In this document: positions 1 to 8,139 of the stretch, piece by piece | Numbering within the stretch: position 1 is the stretch's first letter | How the letters are laid out: each line of letters begins with the position of its first letter | From: Candidatus Latescibacterota bacterium | GTDB lineage: Bacteria; Latescibacterota; UBA2968; GCA-2709665 | Direction: 5' to 3' | Length of the DNA stretch: 64,000 nucleotides | NCBI GenBank assembly: GCA_965203805.1 | Contig: OZ241917.1 | Location: forward strand, 1,920,001 to 1,984,000 | Program-made: the position numbers and the translations under genes | Notes under the pieces: generated by a model | The model's input: the letters and a program-made list of their open reading frames with translations, nothing else | Database searches by the model: none | What the model was told of the DNA's origin: nothing

Positions 1-671
1 TGGGAATTGGTAGAAAGAGCCACGCGATACACAACATCCCATCTGGACGGTTCAAGGCGTCGCAATTCCATTATCTTCATCGGGTTTACCATAAGTACGA
101 AGACCTCGCCCAATCTACCCGTTAACACCCTGGTGGCATGTAGTAACCGTGTCGTGTCCACATGCTTCCCGGCTCTGTCATATCGGACAATCTGGCCATA
201 AGTTGAATCCAACAGGTACACCATACCCTGCGGGTCTATTGACATATAACGAGCACTGCCATATTCGCCTGGTCCGCGACCCTGACGACCGAAAGACTGG
301 ATATAGCGTCCGTCCGAAAGGTCAAACTCATGTGCTCTTTCACCAATCCGGTCGGTAAGCAGTAGAGTGTTATCCCGTGTCACACCTATCCAGTTTGCCT
401 CACCAATCCCAGGTGTTTTTTCGTTAAAGTCCAGACTAAATTGGCGCTTCAAATCAAGACCGATTTCGCCGATATATTCCAACTTCGTTTCGTGAATGGA
501 CTCTTCGTTGGCCTCGTGAGGCGAAGACTTCGAATACGTCTCCTTCGACTGGTCCGGCACTTGTGCAACCGCCCGGGCGTTTCCGGAAACAAGAACGACC
601 GTAAGTAAAAAAACAAAAAGACTGAACATTCTTTCCGTCCAATGACGTCCACCTAACGTGCTCTTCTTCAT
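1..671 (-). CDS. Secreted 6-bladed beta-propeller (NHL/TolB-like) protein, runs off the left edge (partial)
   Basis: Not in the ORF track; translated by hand. ATG at 671 preceded by GGAG, open to position 1: MKKSTLGGRHWTERMFSLFVFLLTVVLVSGNARA (signal-like)...LLLTDRIGERAHEFDLSDGRYIQSFGRQGRGPGEYGSARYMSIDPQGMVYLLDS... The GxxGxGPGEY and IDPQGMVYLLD motifs are typical NHL-like propeller blades. Confidence 0.8.
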   Translation of the reverse strand, partial: MKKSTLGGRHWTERMFSLFVFLLTVVLVSGNARAVAQVPDQSKETYSKSSPHEANEESIHETKLEYIGEIGLDLKRQFSLDFNEKTPGIGEANWIGVTRDNTLLLTDRIGERAHEFDLSDGRYIQSFGRQGRGPGEYGSARYMSIDPQGMVYLLDSTYGQIVRYDRAGKHVDTTRLLHATRVLTGRLGEVFVLMVNPMKIMELRRLEPSRWDVVYRVALSTNS

Positions 672-788
672 CGTGAACTCCTTTCGAATTTGTGCTGTGT
701 CATTGTGTAATGGTTATTTGCGTAACCATATTATAATACAATGACTTGTGTATGGAACCTACCTTTTCTACGAATTATTCAGGCTTAG

Positions 789-3252: not shown

Positions 3253-6200
3253 TCAACGCAGACCATAACGCGTCATCATCTTCTGAAGTCCATTTCGGCT
3301 GAGACCCAAATGAGCGGCAGTATGAGAAATGTTGCCCTTGCATTTGTCAAGTGCCGCGGCTATCATCCTTTTTTCAAGGGCAGCCACCTCCGATTTTAGA
3401 TGTCCTCGCGAACCTTGTTCGGCGTCTTGACGATGTTCAATCCTCTTCGAGAATAGATCGACGGAAACCTTCTTTCCTTCTTCAACCAACGCAACCGCGC
3501 GTCTTATCTCATTCTGCAATTCACGGACATTGCCCGGCCACGCGTGATCCATTAATCCCCGCATTGCCCCCACTGTAAGGCCCAGTACTTCCTTTCCCTG
3601 CTCCGAAGAAACACGCTTCAGTATATGCTCTGACAACGAAGGGATGTCCTCAATACGGTCACGCAGTGGAGGCATTTCAATCTGTAAAACGCGCAGCCGG
3701 TAATACAAGTCCTCCCGAAAAAGACCGGCACGCACGTCCGCTTCCAGGTCGCGATTCGTCGCTGCAATCACCCGAACGTCTACGTGGCGAACATTAGTCT
3801 CTCCTACTCGCTGTGTCTCCCCATCCTGCAGTACGCGCAACAGGCTTATCTGCAATTGCGAAGAGGCATCCCCGATTTCATCCAGAAACACGGAACCGCC
3901 CTCCGCGGAGGCGAATAGTCCCTTGCGGTCGGATGAAGCCCCGGTGAATGAGCCTCTTTTGTGACCGAACAGCTCGCTCTGAAGCAGTTCGTGGGTAAGC
4001 GCCCCGCAATTTGCGGAGAGAAAGGGTTTCGCCTTGCGGTTGCTCCGGGTATGGATAGCCCGGGCGGCCAGTTCCTTCCCCGTTCCCGTCTCACCCTGTA
4101 TAAGCACAGTCATGTCGCTTTCAGCCGCCACGTCGACCAGTTTGAACACTTCCTGCATCACCTGACTCTGTCCGATAAGTTCTCCCATTCGGTAGGTGCC
4201 CTCGTATTTTTCCTGGAAAAAAAGTGCCTGCTCCTGGATCCGGGAGAACATCCGGGCGTTGACAACCGCAATGGAGGCCAAATTCGCAAATGCCGCAAAC
4301 AAGGCTGTGTCTTCTTCGCGAAACAAATCTTCTAGCTTTCTATGGTCCAAATACAGCGCGCCGATGACACCCGATTCCGCATGCCGCAGTGGAACGCAAA
4401 GCACCGATCGGATGCCGTAGGCCGAAACGCTGGCCCTTTTTCTGAATCGATCGTCAACGCGGGCATCCAGACTCAATACGGGCTCGCACTGCTGCATCGA
4501 CCACCTGATTATTCCCTCGCTGATCTCCCTTGCTGCTAAATCATCCAGATTATACTTACGCGCAACCTTGACGCGACCGGCTGCCCCATCCTCGATAGCA
4601 ATCAAAACACGTTCGGCATGGCTCACCTTCTTCAGTCGGTCCAGAATTCGATCAAGTAGCACATTCAGGTCCAAGACCGACGTCAAGTCTTCGGATACTT
4701 CATAAAGGGTCTGCAGATGCTCTTGGGAAAGCGCCGTAACCTTCGCCTCTGGTGTTATAGTCATCGCAGTTTCCTCAATAACCAGGTTTAGGAGATCCGC
4801 TGCCTTTCGGGCCAGATAACGCAGATTCAAGCGTTCGGCAGCCTGAAGGGCGTTTTCCAGGTGCCGCCGGGCATCGGCATGACGCCGTCGCTCAACATAA
4901 TAACTGCCCGCTACAACCAACAGATTTACCTGTTCAAAACCGTCAGGCGAACCCTGTGTGTCCGATGCATGATCAATCAGGGAATCGACTTCTTCATGAC
5001 GGTCGGCCGCAACAAGCGATTTTGCCTTTGCAGTCCATGCAAGGGCGCGGACATTCCCGCCGTACTCTACACCCGGCCAAGCCCGTTCGGCCCAGGCCAG
5101 CGCCTCTTCGACACGGCCGGTTTGCGCCAATGTCTCGGCAAGCAACGCATGAGCCCGGCACATTTCATCGGGACTTTCGGCACCCGACAGAAGCCCCACC
5201 GCGGCACTCGCGTGGGCCTCTGCAGCCTCGGTATCTCCACGTTCCAGGACAATCCTGCCCAAATACACGAGTGATCCTGCTTCCGCAAGTCTCGAACCGC
5301 GTTTGGCCCAAAAATCCTTAAGTTCTAAGAAAATCTCCTCGGCCCGATCGAAATTTCCCAGCCGATTCTCTGCACGTCCCAAAAGGAAAAGACAGTTATG
5401 GCGATAAGTGCGATCGCCGTTATTCTCCAGTAGATTCAATGAAGAATCCAGGAGCTTTTTCGATCTGTCATTAAGATAGGTAAACTGCGCCGCAAACCCG
5501 AGATGCATCAAAGCGCGTGCTTCGTTGATAGACCCTCCCATTTCGCGACATTTCGCGGCGGCTAATTGACTATATCTCGCAGCAACCTCTTTTTTATTCA
5601 GCGCTACGTAGAGATTAGACAACAAACCCAAAACCCTAAGTTCATTCTCGGCCTCGCCCTGATTCCGCAAGAGTTCCAGCGCTTCTAACAACATCGACTC
5701 AGCTCTTTGGTAGTCCCCGCCATTCACGCAGGTAATTCCCAAAATCCTCAACACATTCGCCCTTTGCGCGGGCATTTCGACGGACGCCCACTGCAGGGCC
5801 CCTTCCATCTCCCGGCGGGCGTCCTCGTACCTGTCGCATCCGCATAGCGCTTCGGAGTAAGCGCAGAGAAAGTCGAGATGCATCACGGACCCCCTTGCAA
5901 ATCCGACGGGCGCATCGGGCGAGAGCGCGCCTTTTTTGAGAACAGTTCGGAACTGTTTGAGTGCGTACGAGAAATATTGCATCCCCAATGCCTTGCGGCC
6001 GGATTCTGTCACGTACAGCGCCATTTTTTCAAGGTCGTTCGACCTCGAAAAGTGATAGGCCAATTCATCCAGTGACTCAGCGGCGCCGCAATCCAACCGT
6101 TTCTCTAAGGCCCTGCCTGCCTCCTGGTGAAGAAACGTACGTTGGCTTTCGGAAATGCCTTCATAAACGGCCCGCCGAATCAGTCCATGTGAGAACCGAT

Positions 6201-8139
6201 AACGTCCACTCGGTTCTTGCAAATCTTCCAAATGGCCCAGGTTGACGTTCGTATCCAGCTTCTCTAGTAAATCCAGTTCATCCTTGCACCAGACCTCTGA
6301 AATCAGCTCGAACGAAAACGCACCGCGAAAGATCGAGGCATATTCCAGCACCTGCCGTTGGGACGACTGCAGCCGTCCCAGACGCAACTCGATTGCCTGC
6401 ATAATGCCCGTGGGCATCGGCCATTCGGTTGACTTCGGCCAATTCCAATTGCCTGCCGAATCCTTCCAGATTGAGCCGTCCGCAATAGCTCCTCGAACCA
6501 TTTCTACGATAAACAGTGGATTTCCCCCAGTTTCCAGGAAGACCCTCCGAGCTTCTTCCTCGGAGACCACCTGCTCTCCAAGCAGGGACGCAGCCAGACA
6601 CCCAGTTTCGTCCATACGGAGAGGCTGGAGATGAAAATGTACAATTCGAGTTCCATCTGACCCATTTGTCAGGTCGTCGATTCCCGGGGGTAGCGGATCT
6701 TCGTCCACAGTGCGGCAGGCGAGCCCGAAGATGAGAGGTGCGGGATCAGGATTTCTCCTCGTAAAGTCAAGGAACCGCAGGGTCAAGTCATCGGCCCACT
6801 GCAGGTCTTCAATGCATACAAGGGTGGGCGCTTCCCGGCTCAGATCGACGAGCAGTTCCGACAAAGTCTCCATCGCCGGGTACGGATCCGGCTGATCGGC
6901 GGGCACCGGACGTTCGATTTGCGTTAGAACCCGCCTGACGGATGCTTCGAGGTCCGAACCTCTAATGTCGGGCAGTTCCGCCATATCCCTCAGCATTTCA
7001 AGAAATGGACCAAAGGCTTGGCCGCCGCTCTCATAACAACGTCCTGTTTGTACGCGCATCCCGTTAACGCGGGCGTCGGCCTTAAATTCTTCGAGAACTT
7101 GCGTCTTCCCGATGCCAGCACTCCCGCTAACGAGAATCATGTGCCCAATACACTCGCGAGTATCCTGCAGGATCTTCCACAGAGCCTTCATCTCTTGTTG
7201 CCGACCCTGGAACTGGGGTTGCAAAAATGGAACGTCCGTGGTACCCAAGACAGGCAGCATTGTGACGGTAGCTTCGTCGCAGTATTCATGGAATCCGCTT
7301 GCCTCGTTAATCGTCAAATCATAGAGCAAGCTCCCAACCGAACTGTACCGGTCAATCGGCTCCTTCTTGAGAAGCTTCATTACTGACTCTTCGATTCCCG
7401 AGGAATTTTCGCCGGCAACAAGGTGCGGAGGACAAGGTAATTCTTGCAAATGCTTAGTCAATATTGTCGCCGGATCTGTTCCCGTGAACGGTGGATTCCC
7501 GGAGAGAATCTCGTAAAGAATGACTCCCAATGAATAAAGGTCGGATCGCTGGTCAACTCCCCGGCCCCGAATCTGTTCGGGAGACATGTACTCCAAGGTC
7601 CCCGTAGCTGCTTCCGGAGGCTGCAGGCGTTCATCCGCAGCATCTTTAAATCGCGCCAGACCCAAGTCCAGAATCGTAACCTCGGGTTGGCCGTCATTTT
7701 CTGAAATAATGATATTGGAGGGTTTAAGATCTTTGTGTATTACACCAAGTTCATGGATGTATGCAAGCCCCTCACCAGTCTGCCGGACAAACGGAACGAG
7801 CCACGCGGATTTTAGTTTCCCGCGGTATTCTGCGCTTGAAATCAGGTCAGACAGTGGATGACCCTGGACATAATCCATCGAAAAATACGGTCTCCCGTCG
7901 TGAAGGCCCCACCTGCGTGAAACTACAATTCGAGGATGTCGGATCCGAGACAGGATATCAAACTCCCTCAGAAATCGCCTTTGCGCCACTTCCCCAGAGA
8001 TATTCAACACCTTAAGCGCTACAATGGAGTCTTCCCGGACGTCCCGCGCGCGATATACGATTCCTATACCTCCGTTTCCGACCGTATCCAGGATCTTGTA
8101 TCGTCCGTCGACAACCATTCCAGTCTCTATTTCGGCCAT
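3253..8139 (-). CDS. Multidomain Ser/Thr protein kinase - AAA/STAND ATPase - TPR - GAF - sigma54-dependent activator - Fis HTH (1628 aa)
   Basis: Kinase: [43 protein letters not shown]. ATPase: [20 protein letters not shown]-like helical repeats. [18 protein letters not shown]. b[50 protein letters not shown]-terminal [17 protein letters not shown]. Confidence 0.95.

Follow-up and report, generated by a model that had tools for sequence, protein, structure and literature searches.

A conserved regulator-peptide-enzyme cassette of Latescibacterota suggests a new ranthipeptide-like peptide family with a dedicated sigma54 regulator

The DNA analysed here, referred to below as the window, is a stretch of 64,000 nucleotides (C1:1920001-1984000, GenBank contig OZ241917.1) from the genome of a Candidatus Latescibacterota bacterium (G000; single contig, 5.87 Mb), a member of a phylum of which we know no cultured representative. 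Positions 1-8139, read on the minus strand, carry a conserved three-gene unit made up of a giant sensor-regulator, the gene of a small peptide with one cysteine and an iron-sulfur enzyme predicted to modify this peptide. An initial annotation had named a regulator, an intrinsic terminator, a -24/-12 promoter, an open reading frame (ORF) of 72 codons, a radical S-adenosylmethionine (SAM) enzyme with a SPASM domain and a beta-propeller protein in this region, all of which were found, in the positions and on the strand that it had given them. The parts of the cassette are the following:

1159-2631, minus strand: radical SAM/SPASM enzyme of 490 residues, the predicted maturase, with a predicted N-terminal recognition element for peptides that the ribosome makes and that are modified post-translationally (RiPP recognition element, RRE); read from ATG 2631, with an alternative GTG start at 2619
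2658-2876, minus strand: putative precursor peptide of 72 residues (ATG 2876, stop 2658); homologous ORF in 26/26 loci with upstream DNA
2883-2889, minus strand: ribosome binding site AAGGAGG, 6 nt ahead of the ATG, read from the sequence
2972-2987, minus strand: sigma54 -24/-12 promoter GGGTACGTGGTTTGCA, with GG at 2986-2985 and GC at 2974-2973; score 18/21
2992-3022, minus strand: intrinsic terminator, stem 3022-3001 with 8 pairs (5 G-C), followed by a T run
3089-3105, minus strand: candidate activator binding site TGTATACAATGAATACA, a block that is conserved when the six closest intergenic regions are aligned, situated ~110 nt upstream from the -24 element
3253-8139, minus strand: regulator of 1628 residues, identified by its Pfam domains, an alignment of 20 sequences and its adjacency to the cassette

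A homologue scan with one genome per species returned 80 loci, 27 of which (L006-L031 and L044), at 46-95% identity, were taken as the family, identity falling to 31% at the next locus. Together with the window and a paralog in the same genome, they form a comparison set of 29 loci, the closest to the window being L006, its 95% relative. The cassette is restricted to the Latescibacterota: the record titles of the 27 family loci name Latescibacterota or Latescibacteria in all cases except two, which are titled Gemmatimonadota/Gemmatimonas. When ORFs of at least 100 residues from the 29 loci were clustered, universal clusters were limited to those of the enzyme, present in 29 loci, and of the regulator, present in 27, the next cluster being confined to 11 loci. 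By tblastn, the regulator lies directly upstream in 26 of the 28 other loci, i.e. in 27 of 29 when the window is included. The two exceptions are L027, which is a contig end, and L029, where no regulator match was found and the upstream ORFs look transposase-like by eye.

A second copy of the cassette, with the same gene order, is encoded in the genome of the window itself (G000:C1:3882879-3889806, equivalent to L005:4879-11806) and comprises a 1620-residue regulator (59% identical), a 67-residue peptide and a 493-residue enzyme (60% identical). Across G000, the regulator query matches 13 places, and the only two full-length matches are the two cassette regulators; of the partial ones, one covers residues 754-1628 (C1:1187040-1189670) and ten are limited to the C-terminal AAA+ and helix-turn-helix (HTH) part. 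The same pairing is seen in G052, G079, G071 and G085, which have 2, 3, 3 and 3 regulators (at least 85% of the query), each within ~0.5-0.7 kb of one of 2, 3, 3 and 3 enzyme genes. In these five genomes, all 13 near-full-length regulators hence adjoin one of the 13 enzyme genes. Together with the adjacency in 27 of 29 loci and the conserved sigma54 promoter described below, this bears out the suggestion of the initial annotation that the activator with kinase, STAND, TPR and GAF parts is a dedicated partner of the peptide and the enzyme.

Two further observations concern the occurrence of the cassette. In locus L086 (G037:C2:2579001-2597000), the regulator is broken by a 466-residue plus-strand ORF, transposase-like by eye, between its kinase and STAND parts; the leader and the core of the peptide lie in different frames, possibly owing to an error in long-read assembly, and a second, upstream peptide-like stretch has Ile in place of the cysteine. 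Between 0.23 and 0.37 of the sequence words sampled from window positions 1100-3300 are present in public sponge-metagenome runs, with three runs of one study, which may be the source sample, containing all of them; this hints at a sponge-associated habitat.

The region between regulator and peptide gene follows the same order in both groups of loci, namely regulator stop, dyad repeats, an A/T-rich stretch, terminator, -24/-12 promoter, ribosome binding site and ATG. Promoters were scored in the 330 nt ahead of each peptide start against a generic sigma54 consensus, with a threshold of at least 18 of 21. This score was reached in 27 of 28 upstream regions versus 50 of 5600 shuffles (0.9%) and none of the 28 opposite strands, the sole region below it being that of L029. 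The sites are positionally aligned across the loci and lie 58-123 nt ahead of the ATG (220 nt in L026). Since G000 also encodes RpoN (422.7 bits, cut-off 277), the GG at -24 and the GC at -12 occur together with the cognate sigma factor, as expected of a sigma54 promoter. The sequence that the initial annotation had favoured as the likely promoter (TGGCGCC...TTGAT, at ~2937-2919) is found only in the window and L006, and has to give way to the conserved site at 2987-2972. Located between the candidate binding site and the promoter, the terminator closes the regulator transcript; a hairpin with a T run occupies the same position in both groups of loci with different stem sequences, and an AAGGAGG-like site is found at the same place in most loci (both read by eye from the alignments). 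No RNA element reached Rfam gathering scores in window positions 1-9000.

In the more distant loci, two to three dyads of the form GTG(C/T)AT-N8-AT(G/A)CAC are found in the equivalent upstream stretch between the two genes, and their sequence goes along with that of the HTH recognition helix of the neighbouring regulator. All 9 loci whose helix reads GLQKK have 4-5 GTGCAT/ATGCAC half-sites and no GTGTAT/ATACAC, while all 6 loci with GLHKK have 2-4 GTGTAT/ATACAC half-sites and no GTGCAT/ATGCAC. This pattern suggests that the regulator binds the upstream dyad sites and would fit each regulator reading its own operator.

The peptide of the window consists of a leader of about 31 residues, with L12-I13-N14-G15 and G21 matching the family pattern LxL(I/V)NG...G, and a core in which C38 is followed by WPWFPILPPP. 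An alignment of 28 peptides shows no variation at N14, G21 and C38 and next to none at P47 and P49. In a larger set of 140 unique peptides, the same Asn, Gly and Cys as well as the last Pro of the Pro-rich motif are each conserved at 100%, and 119 of the 140 have exactly one cysteine. The most common form of the peptide reads M-A-T-R-R-K-L-T-L-I-N-G-T-I-D-x-E-G-x-I ... G-G-C-P-x-G-W-I-A-V-P-P-L-P-F-P and ends in an acidic tail (D-D-D-D-W-D-D-F-D-Q), the subgroup of the window has C-V-W-P-W-F-P-I-L-P-P-P and a neutral tail, and all that is kept in more distant peptides is the Asn of the leader and an L-S-C core. A profile search (E <= 0.001) retrieved at least 266 database relatives, none with a Pfam domain and all named only 'hypothetical protein'. 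The peptide itself has no match in Pfam or NCBIfam at E <= 0.01, so that no curated precursor family fits it, in line with the proposal that its core lies outside the recognised classes.

The upstream peptide whose conservation the initial annotation had wanted checked in homologues is present in every one of the 26 loci with upstream DNA; the motif proposed for it (LxLING..GC..C.W.W) holds in part. Its leader and its second cysteine, C38, are borne out, whereas the column of the first cysteine, C26, contains Cys in 3% of the 140 peptides. The tryptophans are local to the subgroup: by eye, C-x-W is kept in the six closest peptides and W42 only in the window and L006, and the column of W40 contains Trp in 40% of the 140. 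An aromatic residue of some kind follows the cysteine by 1-5 positions in most cores (again read by eye).

The enzyme gene begins 26 nt after the stop codon of the peptide gene. An alternative 535-residue ORF from ATG 2766 was rejected, as it overlaps the peptide gene and its start is unsupported, the family alignment beginning later, at the MxxIxxSxxHLF block. The radical SAM motif CX3CX2C (C124/C128/C131) is invariant in 33 sequences and present in 27 of 27 full-length primary copies. Equally invariant are seven SPASM cysteines (C362, C380, C418, C421, C427, C431 and C450) for two auxiliary clusters, with CX2CX5CX3C present in the primary copies. In the AlphaFold model (pLDDT 86.9), the N-terminus folds into strands at 9-38, helices at 40-48, 54-60 and 67-79 and a short strand at 83-85 (pLDDT 85-95), and the enzyme can be aligned to the solved structure 5WGG from residue 7. 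Residues 1-85 are therefore predicted to have the shape of an RRE, and the precomputed Pfam annotation of some homologues includes PqqD (PF05402). The enzyme thus brings together a radical SAM motif, seven SPASM cysteines, a predicted N-terminal RRE and a conserved adjacent precursor gene.

Its best NCBIfam matches are the SCIFF maturase (TIGR03974, 247.9 bits, cut-off 425), the nif11-peptide maturase (TIGR04064, 244 bits, cut-off 518.7), PapB (NF047865, 239 bits, cut-off 340) and QhpD (TIGR03906, 228.7 bits, cut-off 453). Weaker matches to other SPASM enzymes are the anaerobic sulfatase maturase (TIGR03942, 104.4 bits, cut-off 349), DynA (97 bits), YhhB (76 bits) and FxsB (61 bits), and the scores stay below the class thresholds for SCIFF, PapB, QhpD and the anaerobic sulfatase maturase alike. 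The closest solved enzyme is 5WGG, a SCIFF maturase that forms thioethers, both by sequence (family profile, E 2.3e-89, 303.5 bits over residues 9-456; the next, an anaerobic sulfatase maturase, scores 94 bits) and by fold (TM 0.73/0.81, with 27-29% identity to the solved chains). This agrees with the idea of a conserved peptide-enzyme pair of the type in which an enzyme with RRE and SPASM parts forms a thioether, and it speaks against a sulfatase maturase, the assignment that would have undone this idea: 104 bits compare with 248 for the SCIFF maturase model. Anaerobic sulfatase maturases are not known to have an RRE. A FastTree tree built from 107 sequences separates the 59 members of the family from the named SCIFF maturases by a branch of 0.59 (SH-like support 100), a grouping that is partly circular because the family was delimited by search rank, the long stem (0.59) being its informative part.

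The loci that branch more deeply have, behind the enzyme gene, one or two paralogs of it with 25-29% identity (L008:12316-13707, L026:6141-7637, L027:1096-2511, L028:11566-13047, L029:11378-12844 and L086:4582-7408, the last with two copies). Those in L008, L026 and L027 have lost CX3CX2C and kept the SPASM motif, that in L028 has kept CX3CX2C and has no SPASM motif, and that in L029 has neither; judged by these motifs, the paralogs of L008 and L026-L029 look like degenerate radical SAM partners.

Prediction of a complex between enzyme and peptide gave an ipSAE of 0.83 versus 0.00 for the best of 3 controls, which exceeds a mark that 58 of 80 solved complexes attain and 2 of 110 pairs that do not belong together. 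At least 57% of contacts are shared between the model runs, with a partner pLDDT of at least 49. The most confident contacts place leader residues 10-14 (LYLIN) on the RRE strand formed by residues 33-37, and the interface also takes in core residues 35-40, C38 among them, together with residues 361-364, 380-382 and 431 of the enzyme, some of which are SPASM cysteines. The model thus supports binding of the peptide by the enzyme.

The Pfam domains of the regulator are a Hanks-type Ser/Thr kinase (Pkinase, 14-265), a STAND-type NTPase (AAA_16, 309-470) and TPRs (TPR_12/TPR_MalT, ~793-1107), followed in the C-terminal half by GAF (1157-1292), Sigma54_activat (1321-1488; PF00158, E 2.1e-68) and a Fis-type HTH_8 domain (1586-1625, E 2.8e-10). 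In an alignment of 20 regulators, down to 40% identity, the kinase motifs are invariant (G-loop, K43, H135/D137/K139/N142 and D158-x-G160), as are the Walker A motif of the STAND NTPase (G339..G344-K345) and, in the sigma54 AAA+ domain, G1349-K1355, the G-x-FTGA loop at 1396-1401 and D1420-E1421. Because of these invariant catalytic motifs, all three enzymatic modules look functional. The loop of the window regulator reads GSFTGA, with Ser at the second position, and an AAA+ domain with Walker motifs and a GAFTGA-type loop together with an HTH domain is the domain content of a bacterial enhancer-binding protein. NCBIfam matches are NifA (TIGR01817, 378 bits, cut-off 528.85), NorR (345 bits, cut-off 476), a TOMM system kinase/cyclase fusion (TIGR03903, residues 311-721, 250 bits, cut-off 705.75) and a 'GPMC system' sigma54 regulator (NF038230, 198 bits, cut-off 1200); the very existence of the latter two models means that large kinases and sigma54 regulators named for peptide-type systems are not unprecedented. 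Shorter relatives in a frame of ~900-970 residues, which match ~700-1628 (TPR, GAF, AAA+ and HTH) and have neither kinase nor STAND part, are found away from maturase genes at G000:C1:1187040-1189670 and G052:C1:5045791-5048574.

Around the cassette, the gene content varies between loci, the genes seen being these:

1-671, minus strand: 5' part of the gene of a DUF5128 six-bladed beta-propeller protein (Pfam E 4.7e-09), the full 407 residues being encoded at L004:17448-18671
9769-10785, minus strand: family 2 glycosyltransferase (GT2) gene before the regulator; homologue in the same place in 11/29 loci, both G000 copies included
After the enzyme: family 4 glycosyltransferase (GT4) gene, 8/29 loci, paralog included
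Response regulator with AraC HTH: 10/29 loci
Protein of 300 residues: 8/29 loci; placed near class I methyltransferases by a protein atlas (score 0.96), as a lead only
After the enzyme: short sigma54 activator with AAA+ and HTH only, 9/29 loci

The propeller gene is separated from the enzyme by 488 nt (window 672-1158) without a recognisable gene, and the N-terminus of its product resembles a signal peptide by eye (a hydrophobic stretch and ARA-VA). It had been counted as a member of the system, but a homologue is found in only 1 of the 28 other loci, the 95% relative L006. Nor is the locus self-contained in general, as had been supposed, since accessory genes differ from locus to locus. The suggestion to look for a peptidase or exporter to the left of the window was fruitful, as a QhpE-like S8 peptidase and an ABC exporter are both present there. 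In the same direction as the cassette follow the rest of the propeller gene, a 1.6-kb gene-free stretch, an AhpC/TSA-like gene, a 560-residue ABC exporter and a rhodanese, and further left a 638-residue S8 fusion, a Kelch protein, a BtrH_N/C39-like protein and HlyD and RND pump genes. The first part of the 638-residue protein (L004:10645-12561) matches the QhpE subtilisin-like model best (143 bits, cut-off 165) and its second part TIGR04066 (105 bits, cut-off 200). This gene set recurs in L006 and partly in L010, and the pair of S8 and AhpC-like genes in 2 of the 28 other loci. The gene-free stretch between propeller and AhpC-like gene (L004:15801-17447; ~1.2 kb in L006) contains two ORFs of 101-104 residues that have no Pfam match.

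Next to the paralogous cassette, GT2 and a family-5 solute-binding protein come before, and GT4, the AraC-type response regulator and further genes that resemble sugar-modifying enzymes by eye come after. The short sigma54 activator (~300-345 residues, no sensor domain) is found in L012-L014, L019-L021, L023, L024 and L044, at ~11,500-12,550 or, in L012, L019 and L044, further downstream. It is followed by a UvrD-type helicase of 1,100 residues in 8 of these nine loci, and the same nine have ABC, CAAX-protease-like and two unknown genes of 490-540 residues before the regulator.

Taken together, the unit is very probably a functional cassette of regulator, peptide and enzyme, and the enzyme likely acts on the peptide. 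How the parts might work together can be sketched as follows. A signal read by the kinase, STAND, TPR and GAF part, i.e. by the N-terminal 1,300 residues of what would be a one-component regulator, would release the AAA+ domain, which would assemble at the dyads ~110 nt upstream and open the -24/-12 promoter of a two-gene operon encoding a peptide of 55-75 residues and its maturase. The leader, with its LxL(I/V)NG...G pattern, would dock as a beta-strand on the RRE of the enzyme, whose 5'-deoxyadenosyl radical would join the single invariant cysteine (C38) to a nearby carbon, yielding one thioether macrocycle. Later steps such as leader removal, export, methylation or glycosylation would fall to locus-variable genes, here possibly the QhpE-like S8 peptidase/TIGR04066-type fusion and the ABC exporter to the left of the window. 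On balance, we consider it probable that this cassette works in this way and represents a new RiPP family, similar to the ranthipeptides and served by a dedicated sigma54 regulator. A thioether product in particular, supported by the invariant cysteine and by family resemblance, is slightly favoured. While the observations of the initial annotation were thus confirmed, its interpretation is partly supported.

Several findings weigh against this reading. The enzyme misses every curated maturase cut-off, meaning that chemistry cannot be transferred to it with confidence, and its Pfam SPASM match (19.8) stays under the cut-off of 21.5. No residue that could accept the thioether is conserved across the family, and none of the candidates is universal (E/K/Q 3-4 positions before the cysteine, the aromatic residue after it, or T/D/N 13-15 positions after it); the Pro-rich segment, moreover, is missing in the distant member L089. 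The favourable complex score may reflect memory of, or likeness to, the solved 5WGG complex, as 5WGG was reportedly solved together with its peptide. On the side of regulation, the match between helix and operator amounts to only two or three evolutionary events, and the regulator is split into a two-piece match in L010, L016, L017, L022 and L044, which come from metagenome-assembled genomes (MAGs). Among the 29 loci, neither a peptidase nor an exporter is a conserved companion of the cassette. Finally, the genomes behind the family loci are related, so that the loci do not count as independent, L086 is a distant and decayed cassette, and the enzyme (E <= 1e-80) is distributed patchily, in 25 of 168 genomes of the phylum and, within the genus of the window, in 3 of 14 other genomes, which makes the cassette an accessory trait.

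Alternative explanations differ in whether they concern the chemistry, the role of the product or its purpose in the cell. The enzyme might modify the peptide in another way, by oxidation of the cysteine, by a C-C or ether crosslink at the aromatic residue that follows it in most cores, or by epimerisation. Besides this aromatic residue, the missed thioether-maturase models, the separate clade with its stem of 0.59 and SH-like support of 100, and the weaker matches to SPASM enzymes of different chemistries (YhhB, FxsB, DynA and the anaerobic sulfatase maturase) would all be accommodated. Still, the aromatic residue is not conserved (Trp in 40% of 140 at the W40 column), the sole invariant residue of the core is the cysteine, and the four top-scoring models, like the closest solved structure, all represent thioether formers or their near relatives, making another chemistry rather unlikely. 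It is much less probable that the window peptide is the crosslinked small subunit of a secreted complex, comparable to QhpC, the gamma subunit of quinohemoprotein amine dehydrogenase, with a QhpD-like enzyme maturing, QhpE trimming and QhpF exporting it and the propeller as a further subunit. The full-length match to the QhpD model (229 bits), the S8 peptidase with QhpE as its top match (143 bits, cut-off 165), the ABC exporter and signal-peptide-like propeller in the same direction and the C-x-W kept in the six closest peptides may invite this comparison. The QhpD cut-off of 453 is nevertheless missed, propeller and S8/AhpC-like pair are found in just 1 and 2 of the 28 other loci, a scan of 12 ORFs over 19 kb to the left of the window turned up neither a cytochrome c nor a dehydrogenase subunit, and a single cysteine is conserved in the peptide whereas QhpC has several.

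With respect to function, the matured peptide, either intracellular or exported and taken up again, could serve as ligand for the TPR/STAND part of the regulator in its own cassette, which would then be self-inducing. Such a loop would resemble quorum systems of peptides and TPR receptors, here with a sigma54 output, and it would be compatible with the ranthipeptide-like pathway proposed above, to which it adds a function. The large TPR array, the rarity of an adjacent peptidase or exporter, which would fit an intracellular ligand, and the strict one-to-one pairing of regulators and cassettes, in 2-3 copies per genome that each have their own peptide type and operator variant, are all in keeping with it. 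The same pairing would, however, be expected of any pathway-specific regulator, and co-variation is uninformative since the three genes are inherited together; we therefore regard the loop as unlikely, and as similarly doubtful that 2-3 insulated copies per genome, differing in peptide type, operator half-site and recognition helix, serve as parallel private channels, between cells or between symbiont and host, in these probably sponge-associated bacteria. A conflict system, in which an invader sensed by the STAND/kinase part would trigger production of a harmful peptide, seems highly improbable. It would draw on a weak nSTAND6 match of the STAND NTPase (E 0.0017), the resemblance of the kinase domain to PD-T4-6 defence kinases at the domain level (229 bits), the GT4 of L008, which matches the 'GT4-conflict' model (29 bits, cut-off 26), and the patchy occurrence within the genus (3 of 14 other genomes). 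Against this, PADLOC matches are confined to single domains (kinase and AAA+) and leave the peptide, the propeller and the paralog locus's GT4 unmatched, no phage or mobile context was seen, and the loci lie in stable syntenic neighbourhoods.

The cassette defines an unannotated precursor family that lacks a Pfam or NCBIfam model, under an apparently undescribed regulatory arrangement in which sigma54 would drive the operon of a modified peptide and each operon is paired with one giant kinase-STAND-TPR-GAF-enhancer-binding regulator. In the main bodies of the full texts searched, no description was found that links sigma54 or a kinase-STAND activator to such a peptide system. Automated mining had earlier flagged antiSMASH 'ranthipeptide' and 'RRE' clusters in sponge Latescibacterota MAGs, the text passages concerned listing them without a description (PMC12993501). 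As the cassette has only three genes, a defined promoter and a candidate operator, it should be easy to rebuild in the laboratory, which would give a new crosslinked scaffold with one macrocycle beside a polyproline segment. It would also make a test case for the coupling of kinase/STAND sensing to sigma54 activation, and offer a handle on the role of ranthipeptide-like products, which is open even for the widespread SCIFF peptides.

Among known systems, the regulator finds its counterparts in two places. Like the TOMM kinase/cyclase fusion (TIGR03903), it is a giant protein with a Ser/Thr kinase and a STAND-type NTPase, and that model was named by association with a modified-peptide system; yet it stays below the cut-off, has a sigma54 AAA+/HTH output part in place of a cyclase, and is partnered with a radical SAM cassette. 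With NifA and NorR, it shares the half made of GAF, AAA+ and HTH_8, the invariant Walker A/B motifs and G-x-FTGA loop, and sites upstream of a -24/-12 promoter. Their cut-offs are missed as well, and the regulator has ~1,130 extra N-terminal residues, which hold a kinase that appears active as well as the STAND NTPase and the TPRs.

For the peptide and the enzyme, the Qhp system (QhpD/QhpE/QhpF; TIGR03906, NF049966) offers a full-length QhpD match and, in the extended window locus, the combination of a QhpE-like S8 peptidase and an ABC exporter, but the cut-offs of 453 and 165 are missed, no haem subunit was found in the 12 ORFs scanned and the accessory genes recur in just 1-2 of 28 other loci. 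PapB (NF047865) and the nif11 maturase (TIGR04064), both predicted thioether formers on an adjacent precursor, give similar scores over the catalytic and SPASM parts; again their cut-offs are missed, and the present peptide has neither the repeated C-x3-D motif of the PapB precursor nor a match to a nif11 or any other curated leader model at E <= 0.01. The nearest parallel is SCIFF (5WGG/5WHY, TIGR03974), the system of CteB and CteA with the product 'thermocellin'. Both have an RRE, a radical SAM domain and a full SPASM domain, a two-gene core with no conserved peptidase or exporter and a leader predicted to lie on the RRE strand. They differ in score (248 bits versus 425), clade and leader, in the restriction to Latescibacterota and in the dedicated sigma54 regulator found here; the SCIFF precursor has six cysteines in ~45 residues, whereas the present peptide has one that is conserved. 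By its sequence features, the cassette of the window would thus work like SCIFF and other ranthipeptide systems, although it falls short of each curated membership threshold and has a precursor family of its own.

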